Positions 1-58,003 of a stretch of 64,000 nt of DNA are shown here, one piece after another (positions within the stretch are counted from its first letter, which is position 1; every line of letters begins with the position of its first letter). Where the stretch lies: the IMG/VR virus record IMGVR_UViG_2903352716_000007, positions 19,591-83,590 of that record; one strand, 5' to 3'. The notes under the pieces are model-generated. The model saw only the letters and a program-made list of their open reading frames with translations. It did no database searches and was not told the DNA's origin. This stretch comes from a virus. Taxonomy: Duplodnaviria; Caudoviricetes. The position numbers and the translations under genes were made by a program.

Positions 1-509
1 TTGGCCTTTTGCACAAGGTGCGTAACCATTGCCTTCTTACCGTCTTTAGACCGGAAGGACAGCGTGACGCTGGACAGGTTAAACATGGAGTCAAACAAGC
101 GCTTACGTGCTCGCTGATTAATATCCGTTGGACGCAATCCGCACATCCGCGCAAACTCGGTAAACGGTAGAGTTATCTTCTCAGACGTGAAGCCATAAAC
201 GGAGAACGCGCTGATGATCCCAACCCACGTTTTAAAATCCGTGGACATGTTGAGTTTAGCGCCCTGAATTTTAATGTCCGTATAGCCTTCTCTACGGGCC
301 ACCTCAAGGCTGGAAAGTTCTTCTGAGGCATCTATGAGAAAATCACGCTTGCCGCGCTCACGTGGCGATACAGGCGTGAATACGCTAAGACGCAGCAAAG
401 CGACCGGCTGAACCGTCTTATTGCTGTTAGGTGTCAGTTCATAAACTGTGTCTGAATCTTTTTTAGTGACAGCAAAAGGGCTGACGATCTCTTTGTTATT
501 CAAAGACAT
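1..509 (-). CDS. repA: Plasmid replication initiator RepA (P1/RepFIB family), runs off the window start
   Basis: Manual translation from ATG at 509: MSLNNKEIVSPFAVTKKDSDTVYELTPNSNKTVQPVALLRLSVFTP..., typical RepA/RepFIB N-terminus; iterons directly upstream. Confidence 0.9.
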   Translation of the reverse strand, partial: MSLNNKEIVSPFAVTKKDSDTVYELTPNSNKTVQPVALLRLSVFTPVSPRERGKRDFLIDASEELSSLEVARREGYTDIKIQGAKLNMSTDFKTWVGIISAFSVYGFTSEKITLPFTEFARMCGLRPTDINQRARKRLFDSMFNLSSVTLSFRSKDGKKAMVTHLVQKA

Positions 510-515
510 TCCTAT

Positions 516-524
516 TTATCCACA
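516..524 (+). promoter_or_regulatory. DnaA box
   Basis: Perfect TTATCCACA between the repA start and the iterons. Confidence 0.75.
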
Positions 525-547
525 TAGGGCGCTTAAAAAACAAGCAA

Positions 548-651
548 ATTATGAAAGTGACCGTAATCGGATTATGAAAGTAGCCGTATTTATTATGAAA
601 GTAAACGTATTTATTATGATAGTGACCGTATTCATTATGAAAGTGACCGTA
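548..651 (+). repeat. Five origin iterons, consensus ATTATGAAAGTGACCGTA
   Basis: Copies at 548, 571, 592, 613, 634 (spacing 23,21,21,21), same number and helical spacing as P1 oriR iterons. Confidence 0.9.
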
Positions 652-652
652 T

Positions 653-778
653 GATCTGCCTTTTTCGGTAGTTATATCAAATGGATACGGCATCGGTGAT
701 CTTTATTGATCTTTTAATGATCTCTATTGGACTAAAAGAATTGATCTATCAGGTGGATAAGTGGGTAAGTGGGTAAGT
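653..778. promoter_or_regulatory. Origin core: Dam GATC cluster and DnaA-box-like repeats
   Basis: GATC at 653, 698, 708, 719, 743 in AT-rich DNA, followed by GGTGGATAA and two GTGGGTAA copies; P1 oriR-like layout. Confidence 0.7.
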
Positions 779-1131
779 CAGGTAACTCTGAACCAGGACA
801 TAGATAGTCCCTCAGGCTGGTGGGCATTGCAGAAAACTACGAGAAACCTTTGAGTTTTTGCAAAAATAGCGCTGCAGCATACGGCGCAATGTCTACATTC
901 GCCAATGAAATCATCACTCGATCAAATTTTCATTTTTTTTTGCGAATAATTGACATAGCCTCCAGGCCTTATAAGACGCGCACTTAGCGTTTCTTTCCCT
1001 TTTGCAACCTCAATTTAACCTCAAAATCAACTCTTGTACTGAAAAGAATCCTTACTAGAATATCCCCATATACAGGAAGTTATAGCAGTGGTAGGCGCAA
1101 GATATAGTGTTAAGTCCATCGAAGGGTCAGA

Positions 1132-18203: not shown

Positions 18204-18911
18204 GTGAATATGGGATTCTTTGATGGGCTGGCGAGTAACATCACCGGCGGGGCCAGCGCAAAATCCATTGGCAGTAATTTAATCTCTAACATCCTTGATC
18301 GCGCCACATCCATTTCGAGTGGTAGGCCTGTGTCATTCGGTGGCCTACCCGCTGAGTTATCGAATGCGAAGTCTATTTTACAGGCCGCAATGCGTATTCG
18401 TTACGCGCAGGGCTGGCAGTGGACCATTGAGGCCGATGGTATGCCCGGACTCGACATGTACGCTAAAGACGTTACCTATGGGTTCGGCAACATAGAAACG
18501 GAGTCCAAACTTATCGGAGGGATTGAGTTCAATAAACCGACTCACCGGACGGCTGGAAACCTTACGATGACCGTGCGTGATAACGAACGGGGTGATTTGT
18601 ACCGGTGGTTTGATCAGCGCCGAGCGAGGGTTATTAATAATGACGGGACTATTAACCTCCCCCACGCCTATCTGATGAACATTCGAATTTACCGGGTAAC
18701 GCAGGAAGGCCAGCGCAATTTAGAGGAAGAAGTCTCGGTGATTCCAACGACGCTTGGAGAGATTACCCGTTCGCGTGACCAGGTAACTGAGTTCACGTCC
18801 TACCCTTTGTCGTTTGTTAAATACTCGTCGATTAACCGGGGGCTGGGAGGCCTTGCAGAGAGCGCCATTTCAGGGCTGACAGGCAAAGTTAGTAGCGCCA
18901 TTCAATTCTAA
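18204..18911 (+). CDS. tub: Tube-related protein (P1 Tub equivalent)
   Basis: Tube-like segment YAKDVTYGFGNIETES...GNLTMTVRDNE; synteny. Confidence 0.6.
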   Translation: MNMGFFDGLASNITGGASAKSIGSNLISNILDRATSISSGRPVSFGGLPAELSNAKSILQAAMRIRYAQGWQWTIEADGMPGLDMYAKDVTYGFGNIETESKLIGGIEFNKPTHRTAGNLTMTVRDNERGDLYRWFDQRRARVINNDGTINLPHAYLMNIRIYRVTQEGQRNLEEEVSVIPTTLGEITRSRDQVTEFTSYPLSFVKYSSINRGLGGLAESAISGLTGKVSSAIQF

Positions 18912-18912
18912 A

Positions 18913-19224
18913 TGTCACACAATCATATAGTGTGATTGTCATTTGATAATGCTGAATGATAGTCACACTGTCATAAGTTATGACTGAAACAAAAGATGAC
19001 GTAGTGACCGTCGTATTATCGTAAGGAGTGTTTGTCACTCTATCATTCTTTCACATCATCACATCATCACATCATCACATCATCATTCTGTCATATCCTC
19101 ATATCCTCATATCCTCATTCAGCGTTAATGCCGGTCTTTTGCAGTGCCACATTGTATTAAAGTAATATTGTCATTTTGTAATATCTTCACATCGTCATAC
19201 ATTCATATCATATGAAAGTCACAT
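18913..19224. repeat. Phased array of 39 consecutive 8-bp units, consensus NNTCAYAW, with inverted copies
   Basis: Includes (TCACATCA)x4 at 19051-19082 and (TCATATCC)x3 at 19091-19114; TCA keeps the same 8-bp register over 312 bp of non-coding DNA. Confidence 0.85.
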
Positions 19225-19248: not shown

Positions 19249-19269
19249 AAAACACAGACTGACTATCCT
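19249..19269 (+). promoter_or_regulatory. Late promoter
   Basis: AAAACACAGAC-tgac-TATCCT. Confidence 0.75.
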
Positions 19270-19300: not shown

Positions 19301-20119
19301 ATGAATATTCCCGCTTTCCCATTACCATCCCGACCAAAAAAAGAGATCAGTTTTCGAATGCCCACTGTGGCGGATTCCATGGAATACAGCGACAGCCAGG
19401 AGGAGCAGGAAGAAGTCACTACCACTGAATACCTGAATGCCATGCAGCCTGGCGAAGTTAATGACTCTGCCCTATGGACGGCGCAGGACCGTCGGACCGC
19501 GTTATGGTGGATTTACATCAATTCCCGCACGGACACCGTGACCACATTCCCTTATGAGTGCAAGCACTGCGGGGAAACTCATTTCTATGATTGCGACCTG
19601 AGAGCGCTGTCTGAAACTGCAGAGTTGCTGACGGAAGAACCAGTTCGCCGCGTCACGGTGCCGGTTAAAGGCGTTCCTACAGAGTGGACGCTAAAGCCGC
19701 TGGATGGTCGGGGTATTTGTATGCTCGAAAAACTCCGATTCATGCTGCCTGACGAAGCCGACCCTGAATACAACAACGCTGTACGGCGAATGCGCCTGGC
19801 TGAAATAGCCCTGCATACGGCGCTTGACGATGACCCTGAAGACTTTGAAGCCGCTGCAAACCGTCGCTTCGACCTGATTCAAAGCATGACCACTGATGCG
19901 GAATTTGTGCCGCTGGTGGCCCATGTTCACTTAATGCAGCGCGACTTACGGCATGGACTGGAAGTGAGCATTGATCGCGGCGCTGTCAGCCTGGTTTTAC
20001 CTCCGCACCACTGTGAAGCTGAGGGTAAGGAGGGTATGGCAACACGGTTGCTCGTTCCCTTTCGGCCTGGCGCATTCATTCCAAACTTTAAATCTGAGTG
20101 GCTGGCTAACAATTATTAA
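19301..20119 (+). CDS. pmgB: Tail assembly/baseplate hub protein (PmgB equivalent)
   Basis: Start ATG 19301 lies downstream of the late promoter; CxxC motif; directly before the tape measure. Confidence 0.65.
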   Translation: MNIPAFPLPSRPKKEISFRMPTVADSMEYSDSQEEQEEVTTTEYLNAMQPGEVNDSALWTAQDRRTALWWIYINSRTDTVTTFPYECKHCGETHFYDCDLRALSETAELLTEEPVRRVTVPVKGVPTEWTLKPLDGRGICMLEKLRFMLPDEADPEYNNAVRRMRLAEIALHTALDDDPEDFEAAANRRFDLIQSMTTDAEFVPLVAHVHLMQRDLRHGLEVSIDRGAVSLVLPPHHCEAEGKEGMATRLLVPFRPGAFIPNFKSEWLANNY

Positions 20120-30130: not shown

Positions 30131-30151
30131 AAATCACAGACTCACTATTCT
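30131..30151 (+). promoter_or_regulatory. Late promoter (lydA-dar operon)
   Basis: AAATCACAGAC-tcac-TATTCT. Confidence 0.75.
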
Positions 30152-30185: not shown

Positions 30186-30500
30186 GTGACAGAAGTAGAA
30201 GCGAATCTCATACAGGCGCTTTTCCTGTCGCTACTCAGCGGCACAGGCGTTTTCCTGCATGGGGTGCGCGAGGAAAGGATAAAGGCGTCATCCCTTAACT
30301 TGCTCACCGAATGGGTGTTAGCGGTACTCGCAGGACTGACCGCGTATTACATCGCCAGACATAAGGCGTGGGACGACAGCTTGCTTTATCTCGCCGTGTT
30401 GGTTGTCAGCAACAACGGTCGCGAGGTGTCAACAGCACTTAAAAACCGTCTTATCGAAGCTATCCAATTCTTATTTGGGCCAAAAGGAGGCCGGGGCTAA
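30186..30500 (+). CDS. lydA: Holin (LydA equivalent)
   Basis: 104 aa with about three TM segments; synteny lydA-lydB-hdf-darA. Confidence 0.75.
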   Translation: MTEVEANLIQALFLSLLSGTGVFLHGVREERIKASSLNLLTEWVLAVLAGLTAYYIARHKAWDDSLLYLAVLVVSNNGREVSTALKNRLIEAIQFLFGPKGGRG

Positions 30501-55808: not shown

Positions 55809-56219
55809 ATGTCTGATCGTATAACCAGTGTCGAAGTAGCTGCAGTTATGCTGAAATGTGGTCGTTACATGACGATCGCCGAGATAATGGCGACACTAAC
55901 CGAAACCTACCCTGAACTGGAGAACGGGCATACATCAGTCACTAACGTAGTGCGCACCTTCATGAAATCCCCATCCGCAAGCTGTTTCTCACTCCCAGGC
56001 GCATACCCGCGCATGTACTTACTGACGTCAGTCTCAGGCTATCTGTTTAAGGTCAGGGGGAACCGGCAGGTTTGCTACGATGATTTGCCATTCCATAGCG
56101 GAAGCAAAAAGGATCTGGAACTGGAGAATAAAAAAAGCCAGGAGGTTTCCCGTCTGGCTTTTGGTTTGTTCAACAGTATTTGTCGGCGTCGTATTGCGTC
56201 AGGAATTGCTATCGTCTGA
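55809..56219 (+). CDS. Winged-helix protein; candidate late-promoter activator
   Basis: YMTIAEIMATL...SVTNVVRTF helix-turn-helix pattern; operator-like site at 55770. Confidence 0.45.
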   Translation: MSDRITSVEVAAVMLKCGRYMTIAEIMATLTETYPELENGHTSVTNVVRTFMKSPSASCFSLPGAYPRMYLLTSVSGYLFKVRGNRQVCYDDLPFHSGSKKDLELENKKSQEVSRLAFGLFNSICRRRIASGIAIV

Positions 56220-56693
56220 TGGACGACTCAGCCTAACTGTCTTGCGTGGCTGGCGCCCACTCTCTACCTGAAGCGGCTTAGTGCCTGGAATGCTGGTATC
56301 CTCTTCGCTCTCAGTAGATTGTGTAGCTGCTAGCGGTTTATTAACAACGCTTCGCGCCGGTACGGGAGTTTCTGACGCTGCAGGGGCAACGCGATCGCCT
56401 TTCTTCGCTTGCTGGTGGTCAGTCACTGCAGCCACCCCCATCAATGACATAGCCATGCTGATAAACCGCTCGGCACGTTCACTTTCCGGTAATGCCATCA
56501 GATCCTGACGCTCCAGAAGCGCTACCAGCGCCCCCAGTCCCATCTTCTCCAGCGCATAACCATAACGCAGACAGTCCAGCATAAGCCGACGTTTGGCAGC
56601 ATTGCTTTGCAAGCTGCTGTACTCCGTCGCCAGCGCGTCAGTTAAGGGGCTGTACTCAGCCAGCCCGGTAATCTTGATGGTTTGTTTTGTCAT
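56199..56693 (-). CDS. parR: ParR/StbB-like centromere-binding adaptor
   Basis: Downstream of and coupled to the actin gene; KRRLMLDCLRYGYALEKM; flexible C-terminal tail. Confidence 0.65.
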   Translation of the reverse strand: MTKQTIKITGLAEYSPLTDALATEYSSLQSNAAKRRLMLDCLRYGYALEKMGLGALVALLERQDLMALPESERAERFISMAMSLMGVAAVTDHQQAKKGDRVAPAASETPVPARSVVNKPLAATQSTESEEDTSIPGTKPLQVESGRQPRKTVRLSRPSDDSNS

Positions 56694-57772
56694 TAATTCC
56701 GCTCGCTCAGTTCAGCCAGTATCTCGTCACGCACCGGGTCAAGTGCGAAGTAAACGCCGCGTACAATGCTTGTTTCCGGGTAGTCTGGAATGAAAACCAC
56801 ATCATGCCAGTCGGCTGTGTAATCCGGCATATCATGCAGTTTTCCACCAATATAGTTTGCACCGCCGCCTACCAACAACAGTGCATCAACATCACGCATG
56901 TTTCTGTGAACCTTGCGGATATCGGCGCGAATAATTTCAGCCAATTCACTCGCGGCCTGGCTGATAACGCTCGTTACATCAATGCGCTTGTTGCGCGCGG
57001 CTTCCAGGCGGGAGCCGATGTAACCCTGACGGATGATCGTATCAATGCTATCGATGTTGAGGTCTTTGGCATTGATATTCTTCCCGCTGGTGGCCTCAAA
57101 CTCCTGCAACAGAGCGTGAACCCGTAAAATCATGCGATGGATGCCGTTCTCTGACGTTCTACGGCTAATCACTTGCATATCCTTATCCACGACCGCCATG
57201 TCGCACGTGAAGCGGCCTAAATCGACCACGAGGACGCTTTCAGCCTCAGCCAGATCAGGAATGTCATTCTGCGCGGAAATCAGTGCAGGGACGGCTTCAG
57301 GAAATACTTCAACGTGCGCAATGCGCGGGGGAGTGATATCACCGTTGAAATTGCGAACGGGTATCAAAAGGTTGTCGGCTTTGGCCTTAATGCGGGAACG
57401 GTCAATTTTGCCGATATCAGAATAGAACTGATTCACTGGGAGTGTTTCGGCGACAATCACGTCGCACCCATCCAGGCCAGCACGTACCAGCGCTTCGTTT
57501 ACCAGTACGCGGTGTGCTGCGCTCACCTGATAGTCAGGGTCGCAGGTATCAACCAGGTCGGCCCCCTGATTCACCACAACATAACTGCGTTCGCGCCCTG
57601 CATCGGTGGTCAACCATGAGGAAGAGGTTTCACTGGAAAGCGTCTGCTGGTTGCCAGACCGGATCAGAGAAGGGGTGATGTATGTTTCCATCTGGCCATC
57701 ACGTTCGAACGTCAGCGCAACGTTACCGGAACCTGCATCCACTGCAACGAAAGTATAGTTTTTATTGGTCAT
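56693..57772 (-). CDS. parM: ParM/StbA actin-like partition ATPase
   Basis: AVDAGSGNV, VFPEAVPA, VVDLGRFTCD, LLVGGGA actin-fold motifs. Confidence 0.9.
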   Translation of the reverse strand: MTNKNYTFVAVDAGSGNVALTFERDGQMETYITPSLIRSGNQQTLSSETSSSWLTTDAGRERSYVVVNQGADLVDTCDPDYQVSAAHRVLVNEALVRAGLDGCDVIVAETLPVNQFYSDIGKIDRSRIKAKADNLLIPVRNFNGDITPPRIAHVEVFPEAVPALISAQNDIPDLAEAESVLVVDLGRFTCDMAVVDKDMQVISRRTSENGIHRMILRVHALLQEFEATSGKNINAKDLNIDSIDTIIRQGYIGSRLEAARNKRIDVTSVISQAASELAEIIRADIRKVHRNMRDVDALLLVGGGANYIGGKLHDMPDYTADWHDVVFIPDYPETSIVRGVYFALDPVRDEILAELSERN

Positions 57773-57907
57773 GACTTAATTCCTATTTGGTAATTTCAAA
57801 GTAATAAATCGCAAAGGAAATGTATCACACGGCCTCAAAAAGTCCATATTAAAGGGACGTTTAAATATTGATTGGGCGTAAATTGTCCTTATCGTAAGCA
57901 CAAAACG

Positions 57908-57978
57908 TGATCATGTTTTTGTGTGGGATTGAAGTGATCAAAAAAGTGATCAAAAAAAACTGATCAGTCGCGTGATCA
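57908..57978. repeat. pac-like TGATCA hexamer cluster
   Basis: TGATCA at 57908, 57935, 57947, 57961, 57973, with more at 58208, 58360, 58487 inside pacA; P1 pac uses Dam-methylated TGATCA/G hexamers. Confidence 0.7.
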
Positions 57979-57982
57979 CTCT

Positions 57983-58003
57983 AAAAACCAGACCGCCTAT
58001 CCT
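57983..58003 (+). promoter_or_regulatory. Late promoter (terminase operon)
   Basis: AAAAACCAGAC-cgcc-TATCCT. Confidence 0.65.

Follow-up and report, generated by a model that had tools for sequence, protein, structure and literature searches.

Centromeres of type Ib partition systems normally adjoin their genes, and automated annotation searches for them there. Here, we analyze a 64,000-nucleotide stretch of viral DNA (IMG/VR record IMGVR_UViG_2903352716_000007, positions 19,591 to 83,590), referred to below as the window, which corresponds to a P1/D6-like plasmid prophage according to PHROG and Pfam scans. The gap between its tail tube gene tub and the pmgB-like gene contains a non-coding lattice of 39 in-phase 8-bp units. 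In our view, it is likely that this lattice serves a type Ib (ParF/ParG-like) partition system as a remote centromere similar to parH.

The described system that compares best is ParF/ParG/parH of TP228, a multiresistance plasmid of E. coli. Each ParG dimer binds one 4-bp box, the boxes are separated by 4-bp spacers and may be inverted, and while the eight-box operator OF represses parFG, the 12-box parH constitutes the centromere (PMC3130281). Like TP228, the system studied here appears to combine a small Walker ATPase with a partner of about 95 residues, whose N-terminal tail is predicted to be flexible and whose C-terminal domain is predicted to be ribbon-helix-helix-like; the 4-bp boxes and 4-bp spacers give a period of 8 bp in mixed orientation, and a short operator is accompanied by a longer array. 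There are also differences. The box is TCAY here and ACTC in TP228, and the lattice contains about 27 boxes in 39 units (312 bp), as compared to 12 plus 8 boxes in about 160 bp. Unlike in TP228, the array is not contiguous with the operator but is located about 21-23 kb away in the tail-gene cluster, and nothing resembling an array flanks the par genes in the complete plasmid CP047774.1. Finally, the partner protein shares no detectable sequence similarity with ParG, and its model has an additional C-terminal helix.

Other partition systems share some of these characteristics. The omega protein of pSM19035 is a ribbon-helix-helix repressor that also binds centromeres, which consist of arrays of WATCACW heptads at several loci. 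The short TCAC-containing boxes in mixed orientation are reminiscent of this delta/omega system, but the period is 8 and not 7 (z-scores of +7.3 at lag 8 and -3.1 at lag 7), there is one large remote array instead of arrays at three promoters, and there is no sequence relation. The centromere sites of the linear phage-plasmid N15 are not all located beside the par genes, and some are found among phage genes. These dispersed sites, IR1-4, belong to the SopA/SopB system (PMC7205306), which is reported to affect late gene expression (Ravin, Rech and Lane 2008, cited in PMC11652158). However, the N15 system belongs to type Ia: its ParB is a helix-turn-helix protein, and each of its four sites is a single 16-bp palindrome, as opposed to a ribbon-helix-helix-type protein on one lattice of 300 bp. 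In the case of R1, parC likewise consists of short direct repeats that form an array (PMC2241845). Like R1, the window encodes ParM and a putative ParR, but whereas the 11-bp iterons of R1 parC lie directly upstream of parM, the lattice has a period of 8 bp and is 37 kb away from it. The backbone is shared with P1 and D6 (sheath, tub, pmgB, pmgC, pmgG, sit, lpa, pacAB and an iteron-type repA). P1, however, has a type Ia ParAB system with parS beside the genes. D6-like relatives carry parMR plus a parF/parG-like pair (PMC6799933), but the arrays of this pair have a period of 11 bp and adjoin the genes, and the tub-pmgB gap of these relatives holds repA and iterons.

The lattice and its boxes

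The lattice starts one base past the stop codon of tub and consists of the following parts:

18913-19224, no strand assigned: whole lattice, 39 in-phase 8-bp units, proposed remote parH-like centromere (box scan and autocorrelation)
18913-19032, no strand assigned: left block, 15 units in mixed orientation, TCGT variants included (8-mer cutting)
19033-19120, + strand: central block, 11 direct boxes in succession (8-mer cutting and Tandem Repeats Finder)
19121-19168, no strand assigned: box-poor island of six units, with the same register on either side (8-mer cutting)
19169-19224, no strand assigned: right block, seven units, of which five are direct, one is inverted (CATATGAA) and one is degenerate (8-mer cutting)

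A preliminary description, made from the letters of the window alone, had cut this stretch into 39 in-phase 8-mers from position 18913 and had counted by hand 21 units with TCA and six with an inverted TGA. Recutting gave the same units, and these numbers were matched exactly by our box count. The 21 direct TCAY boxes occupy positions 3-6 of the octamers, and the six inverted RTGA boxes positions 4-7 (that is, TGA at 5-7), which corresponds to phases of 2 and 3, respectively, and hence to a constant offset of +1. The direct units of the left block include TGTCACAC, AATCATAT, TGTCATTT, AGTCACAC and TGTCATAA, and the inverted ones include AGTGTGAT, TGAATGAT, GTTATGAC, AAGATGAC and GTAGTGAC; the central block contains tandem copies of CATCACAT (three to four) and CCTCATAT (three). 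All 21 direct units have TCA at positions 3-5 but differ from one another elsewhere. Five TCAY hits are out of phase, all of them being overlaps within the tandem copies of CATCACAT.

The autocorrelation at period 8 that had been proposed as a check was run against 300 dinucleotide-preserving shuffles, and gave z-scores of about +7 at lags 8, 16 and 24 (+7.3, +7.8 and +7.3) and of +5.6 at lag 32, with negative values at lags 7, 9, 15, 17, 23 and 25. The signal is also present when the thirds of the lattice are taken separately (left, +4.1 at lag 24; middle, +6.2 at lag 8; right, +5.2 at lag 16). For any period between 4 and 24, the lattice is the strongest periodic stretch in the window, and it is the only place in it with at least four in-register boxes per 64 bp (up to eight of eight there, three at most elsewhere). 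Tandem Repeats Finder reports only the central part, 19035-19118. The observed lattice is therefore real and far above chance.

The number of units differs among relatives. Comparison of the tub-pmgB gaps of loci L001, L002, L023, L111, L004 and L114 showed that near-identical relatives differ in the number of tandem 8-bp copies, with seven to 11 copies of ACTCATAT/ACTCATAC and four versus five copies of TGTATGAC. Thus, the proposed centromere expands and contracts by 8-bp steps, and the central block is the part that grows and shrinks by slippage. Because the array grows in this way, part of the conservation of phase comes for free.

Array type follows a ParF/ParG-like module

A megablast search with the array against phage and plasmid collections gave no match, and short-word blastn was needed to identify relatives, which are Citrobacter, Leclercia and Pantoea plasmids and phage D6. 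The exact PmgB of the window has no protein record. For viral contigs, a single-protein scan returned no relatives, and an alignment-based scan of IMG/VR gave 80 P1-like loci. In most of these 80 loci, tub and pmgB are separated by 0-38 bp. The D6-like ones have an insert of 1.45-1.77 kb in the gap, annotated in D6 as repA with iterons, and a non-coding array (156-432 bp) is found there only in the clade nearest the window. The arrays in this clade are of two unrelated kinds: the 8-bp TCAY lattice, and an array with a period of about 11 bp that is built on ATGTA..TAC motifs.

The Citrobacter plasmids CP047774.1 and NZ_CP114569.1 illustrate the two kinds. They are 96-98% identical nearly throughout, and the parMR region is part of a 36.8-kb block with 98.25% identity, yet the former has the 8-bp lattice and the latter the 11-bp array. 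Apart from accessory and tail-fibre islands, which also differ, two segments related to maintenance do not align: the array in the tub-pmgB gap, and a pair of genes encoding a ParA-like ATPase and a protein of about 95 amino acids. This two-gene module adjoins dam and repA and is located 22.5 kb from the array. Since the intervening DNA is 97-98% identical, the array and the module are separate patches. Two families of the module can be distinguished, which share only 24-31% identity. In family A, a gene for a 208-residue ATPase overlaps a gene for a protein of 96-99 amino acids, and in family B, a gene for a 220-residue ATPase is followed, after a 90-bp spacer, by a gene for a protein of 92-94 amino acids.

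In tblastn searches, the family-A small protein was found with 99% identity in exactly four Citrobacter plasmids, which are those with the 8-bp lattice, and with 57% identity in two Leclercia plasmids, which have an 8-bp lattice with variant units; no copy was found in the three Citrobacter plasmids that carry the 11-bp array. In all 18 records that were examined directly, the type of array tracks the module. The 8-bp lattice goes together with family A in nine of them (the replicon of the window, CP047774.1, NZ_CP099368.1, NZ_CP126882.1, NZ_CP042508.1, NZ_CP040893.1, G004, G005 and G009), and the ATGTA-type array of about 11 bp with family B in six (NZ_CP114569.1, NZ_CP115618.1, NZ_CP125312.1, the ERZ940655 contig, G001 and G003), while the remaining three (Pantoea CP009882.1/G006, IMG/VR G007 and Pantoea NZ_CP134741.1) have neither an array nor a ParF-like gene.

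The type of module cuts across the backbone. The Citrobacter plasmids of family A have a backbone that is closest to that of the Citrobacter plasmids of family B, and the backbone of the window is about 75-80% identical to that of the former, with which it has the types of module and array in common. This requires that both patches were exchanged concordantly at least once. A food-metagenome contig encodes a RepA 99% identical to that of the window and carries family B and an 11-bp array.

The array of family B was seen in L003 (2209-2518), L020 (2946-3256), L022, L024, L112 and L113, and its motifs are of the type ATGTAnnTAC or resemble TGTAAATACA. In family B, these motifs also precede the ATPase gene and occur within the 90 bp that separate it from the small gene.

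The boxes of the array recur at the par operator

The region upstream of the family-A ATPase gene contains the sequence TCGTCACA TTATAATA GTGTCATT CAATATGA CAGTATGA, in which two direct and two inverted boxes can be recognized, the inverted ones being offset by +1 as in the array. This four-box operator overlaps the TATAAT (-10) sequence of the par promoter. The same rule was seen in five lineages, namely L107, CP047774.1, Leclercia, G004 and G005, the last three with variant boxes; in the sub-lineage formed by Leclercia, G004, G005 and G009, the variant units AGTATTAC, AATATGAC and AGTGTGAC are present in arrays and operators alike. In family B, the ATGTA..TAC motifs known from the arrays are found on the flanks of the operons. 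When arrays and operators were compared for shared 6-mers, the resulting matrix was block-diagonal: pairs of the same type had z-scores of 1.3-9.9, mostly 2.5 or higher, and 24 of the 32 cross-type pairs were below 2. The other eight cross-type pairs had scores of 2.0-4.4, and these moderate scores mostly involve the Leclercia-type array and operator.

A scan of the complete plasmid CP047774.1 for in-register lattices returned the array, the par operator and a single hit in a coding region. This coding hit (L007, 4953-5016) consists of four in-register TCAY/RTGA boxes within a conserved gene for a 259-residue protein that adjoins the par module. It is probably a coincidence, because an equivalent is present in the family-B plasmid NZ_CP114569.1 and, therefore, in plasmids of both families.

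Homologous operons encoding ParA and the small protein are present on ordinary plasmids of Cronobacter, Enterobacter, Pantoea and Atlantibacter, and these have arrays with an 8-bp period directly upstream and downstream, as exemplified by four to five copies of GTTATCTT in both orientations. D6-like replicons show the order parM, parR, array, parF-like, parG-like, array. Thus, adjacency is the norm in the family, and the remote position is derived in the clade of the window. In one of the D6-like loci (L109, IMG/VR G008), parM, a 114-codon parR-like gene, the gene for a ParF-like ATPase and that for a 94-residue partner form one cluster, with arrays of GGTG boxes with an 11-bp period between and after the genes, so that two partition systems lie side by side.

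The ParF/ParG-like module of the replicon of the window

The ParF-like module escaped the preliminary description because it is located outside the window. Contig L017 (SRR5942188) is 100% identical to window positions 1-944. RepA P0012 is 100% identical to the product of the repA fragment in the window. For P0012, a 98-residue protein named P0120 and a PAAR protein, the longest contig listed is the same one, of 83,590 bp; P0120 and the PAAR protein are assigned by their sources to Citrobacter sp. NCU1. P0120 is encoded on contig L106, from the same run, together with a 208-residue ATPase that is 93.3% identical to that of Citrobacter family A; P0120 itself shares 84.7% identity with family A and 23.5% with family B. 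The small gene is located directly downstream of the ATPase gene, with an overlap of 4 bp, and on L106 it is followed straight away by a terminator, and not by an array. By analogy with the relatives, the genes for the ATPase and P0120, which were seen only on short contigs of this sample, would be situated beyond repA, about 2-3 kb to the left of where the window starts; their distance from the array would then be about 21 kb.

The best full-length relative of known structure of the ATPase, searched for with the family-A ATPase of G004 (L102), is ParF of TP228 (4dzz, E-value 9.5e-14, residues 7-207). Of the NCBIfam families, ParA_partition was the best match by far (E-value 2.2e-43, covering positions 3-203 of 203), at a score under the curated cut-off. 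With about 200 residues, a deviant Walker-A motif and no N-terminal DNA-binding domain, the ATPase has the characteristics of type Ib.

The small protein belongs to a family of 219 proteins (E-value of 1e-8 or lower), the majority of which are named hypothetical; one homologue, P0119, is named a ribbon-helix-helix protein by one source. Residues R2, R4 and F14 are invariant, a K-x-x-P-V-S/T-x-S-L stretch is conserved and helices are predicted; the N-terminal tail of P0120 has the conserved MRNR...F motif. An AlphaFold model based on an alignment of 60 sequences (predicted local distance difference test score, pLDDT, of 76; a single-sequence model was poor, with a score of 59) suggests that residues 1-37 are disordered and 38-45 extended, followed by helices at 46-61, 69-82 and 85-97. 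A Foldseek search against the PDB gave no match with an E-value of 0.001 or lower. Structural matches include the ribbon-helix-helix proteins TraM, ParD, Arc, PutA, NikR and ParG, with modest Z-scores of 3.2-5.0; that for the N-terminal domain of TraM (3omy) was 5.0, with a root mean square deviation of 2.4 over 49 residues.

Other features of the window

The lattice is embedded in a + strand series of genes with the order capsid-position large gene, sheath, gp21-like, pmgG, bplB-like, pmgC, tub, pmgB and sit. The first of these is large and conserved, and was placed by where relatives annotate the capsid protein. The genes for Lpa and ParM and the pacAB-like genes are clustered near 55.8-60.8 kb (PHROG/Pfam). 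The features that are relevant for the following are:

18204-18911, + strand: tub, tail tube gene, left border of the gap (phrog_1842, E-value 4.5e-76)
19255-19269, + strand: late-promoter-like motif CAGACTGACTATCCT, 3' of the array and 5' of pmgB (the motif recurs at 57989, before pacA)
19301-20119, + strand: pmgB-like gene, right border of the gap (phrog_1854, E-value 6.6e-113)
3-509, - strand: repA, iteron-type, truncated by the edge of the window
56199-57772, - strand: parM (56693-57772) and putative parR (56199-56693), the partner proposed in the preliminary description; no co-variation with the array

The non-coding gap spans 389 bp, from the tub stop codon (18909-18911) to the ATG of pmgB (19301), and the lattice ends about 30 bp short of the late-promoter-like motif. 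The segment of the gap that contains this motif is conserved in relatives of both array types. The CAGACnGnCTATCCT motif is present at 19255-19269, 30137-30151 and 57989-58003, upstream of pmgB, of the gene starting at 30186 and of pacA, respectively. These sites are probably Lpa-dependent late promoters, although their number, three, is not significant in itself, as it was reached in six of 100 shuffles. The position of the third site implies that 57972 may have been wrongly assigned as the start of pacA. In scans for promoters and terminators, the counts were near those of shuffled sequences, and a scan of the array against Rfam for structured RNA yielded only chance-level matches (E-values of 0.5-0.9).

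A P1-type plasmid origin is located at 540-750, with five 21-bp iterons of the ATTATGAAAGTGACCGTAT type at 540-660, adjoining repA, and a GATC-rich stretch at 680-750; incA-like iterons are found downstream of repA, just beyond the window (L017, 1300-1500). As repA, the five iterons and the GATC-rich origin are accounted for at 3-750, the array was rejected as a replication origin. It was likewise rejected as a pac site, since it contains no GATC and a TGATCA cluster is present at 57901-57975.

In phage D6 (L006, 3041-4565) and D6-like phages (L028-L043), the tub-pmgB junction contains a Rep_3-type repA with flanking iterons. Insertions of cargo for plasmid maintenance thus seem to recur at this junction; the cargo would be a centromere here and repA with iterons in D6.

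Discussion

Our view that the lattice is a remote type Ib centromere is supported by comparison of sequences, including the co-variation of array and module, the boxes that the par operator shares with the array in the same register, and the arrays that lie beside homologous operons. If this view is correct, each TCAY box would be read by one dimer of the small protein, every 8-bp unit offering a single box whose orientation can be direct or inverted. Cooperative coating of the approximately 27 boxes by dimers would give rise to a partition complex, and the N-terminal tails of the dimers would recruit and stimulate the nucleoid-bound ParF-like ATPase, by which the plasmid prophage would be positioned. 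The four-box copy of the lattice that covers the -10 sequence of the par promoter would provide autorepression.

Several points weigh against this view. Binding, cooperativity and partition activity are properties that we infer, and a distance of about 21-23 kb between a centromere and its genes is unusual among type Ib systems. The operator was read in a relative, L107 (from another run), which is 99.1% identical to L106 over the 868-bp overlap and encodes an identical ATPase protein. Neither Pfam nor NCBIfam has a family that matches the small protein, and a phmmer search against all PDB chains, including ParG, with the family-A small protein of L102 (51.5% identical to P0120) gave no match with an E-value of 10 or lower. 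Its ribbon-helix-helix fold, as modelled, is suggestive only, with best matches at Z-scores of 5.0-5.4 and a score of 3.2 for ParG (1p94). Finally, the 18 records are phylogenetically clustered, so that they represent few independent swap events.

The preliminary description took the lattice to be a parC on which ParR (56199-56693) polymerises for the actin-like motor ParM. It is true that ParM is a clear member of its family (Pfam StbA_N, E-value 4.9e-20), that repeat arrays are bound by ParR proteins, and that no tidy iteron array is present immediately upstream of parM. The distribution of ParR among relatives nevertheless makes this pairing very improbable. ParR and ParM are 100% identical between CP047774.1 and NZ_CP114569.1, whose arrays in the gap are unrelated, and therefore ParR cannot set the type of the array. 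Conversely, the window and CP047774.1 have the same type of array although their ParR proteins share just 71% identity, and at least one Pantoea relative with a ParR homologue (NZ_CP134741.1) has a tub-pmgB gap of 11 bp without an array. The co-occurrence of array and parMR in relatives, which had been put forward as a check, thus speaks against ParR as the partner. Furthermore, the boxes of the array recur at the promoter of the ParF-like gene, whereas the scan for in-register lattices flags nothing upstream of parM. Hence, of the earlier interpretation, the remote centromere-like lattice is supported by our comparisons, but its assignment to ParM/ParR is not, because the array does not track ParR. 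The statement that there are no repeats upstream of parM was not quite correct either: five repeats of 12-14 bp containing TGATCA are located at 57901-57975, 130-200 bp from the start of parM and adjoining pacA, and they are the sole repeats there. These repeats are of the AAGTGATCAAAA type and are flanked by parM and pacA, which are divergent; the Citrobacter plasmid CP047774.1 has them conserved as well. The hexamers with Dam sites in pac of P1 are similar to them, but the repeats could instead be a parC for ParMR. The putative ParR has 164 residues and no match in Pfam or NCBIfam; the 3' end of its gene overlaps the end of lpa, and it shares 71% identity with the Citrobacter copies and about 36-61% with those of Leclercia and Pantoea.

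Other explanations assign no segregation role, or only a secondary one, to the lattice. The most extreme, that it is a functionless minisatellite made by 8-bp replication slippage, could appeal to the variable copy number in close relatives (ACTCATAT, seven versus 11; TGTATGAC, four to five) and to the fact that slippage keeps the phase automatically. Slippage does not, however, explain why all 21 direct units agree at positions 3-5 but vary elsewhere, why inverted boxes hold the +1 offset, why boxes and offset recur at a promoter about 21 kb away, or why the type of array co-varies with a protein module, and we regard this explanation as extremely unlikely. It is also conceivable that the array serves as an incompatibility or titration sink, which sets the level of free small protein or excludes related plasmids without being the site of segregation. 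The number of boxes, far above that of the four-box operator, would fit such a role, as would the joint swapping of array and par module, as expected of incompatibility determinants; however, centromeres exert exactly this kind of incompatibility, and no separate centromere was found by the lattice scan; we consider a mere sink improbable. A transcriptional device, in which a coat of the ParG-like protein or of another factor insulates or silences the late pmgB-sit operon or blocks read-through from tub, and in which partition is secondary or absent, has somewhat more in its favour. The array has the tub stop codon directly on one side and the late-promoter-like motif at 19255-19269 on the other, tub and pmgB are 0-38 bp apart in most relatives and presumably co-transcribed, and the reported influence of the Sop partition system of N15 on late gene expression provides a precedent. 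On the other hand, these plasmids have no other large array to serve the ParF/ParG-like system, homologous systems elsewhere always have an adjacent array, and about 27 boxes are more than a pure regulator would need. We therefore consider a purely regulatory function rather improbable; a regulatory role is more likely to be additional to the centromere role, with which it is compatible.

A tentative extension of the centromere reading, which we would not call probable, is that the lattice has a dual role: in the prophage, the ParG-like coat on about 27 boxes would form the segregation complex and, at the same time, silence the late pmgB-sit promoter or form a roadblock that separates it from tub, and the array and the par genes would also define incompatibility types. 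Because the array and the par genes are swapped as two unlinked patches, the pair would define such types within one phage-plasmid backbone. If true, plasmid maintenance would be coupled to the expression of tail genes, like Sop in N15.

The kinds of components involved, a type Ib module and a parH-like lattice, are already known. What is new is that the proposed centromere has been displaced to a tail operon of a phage, with about 21-23 kb between it and its genes, and that it is so large; that two unlinked patches have been exchanged concordantly; and that the system coexists with ParMR in one replicon. No description of such a displaced centromere was found in the literature searched, which did not cover the D6 genome paper.

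These results have several implications. The clade of the window has two partition systems, ParMR and the ParF/ParG-like one, and the array now has a directly testable partner. The exchange of a centromere together with its binding protein, even though the two are unlinked, would represent a natural two-locus swap of specificity. The 8-bp box lattice known from parH of TP228 may reflect a general binding mode of a wider family of small proteins that has gone unannotated. More generally, the partition sites of phage-plasmids can hide in morphogenetic operons.

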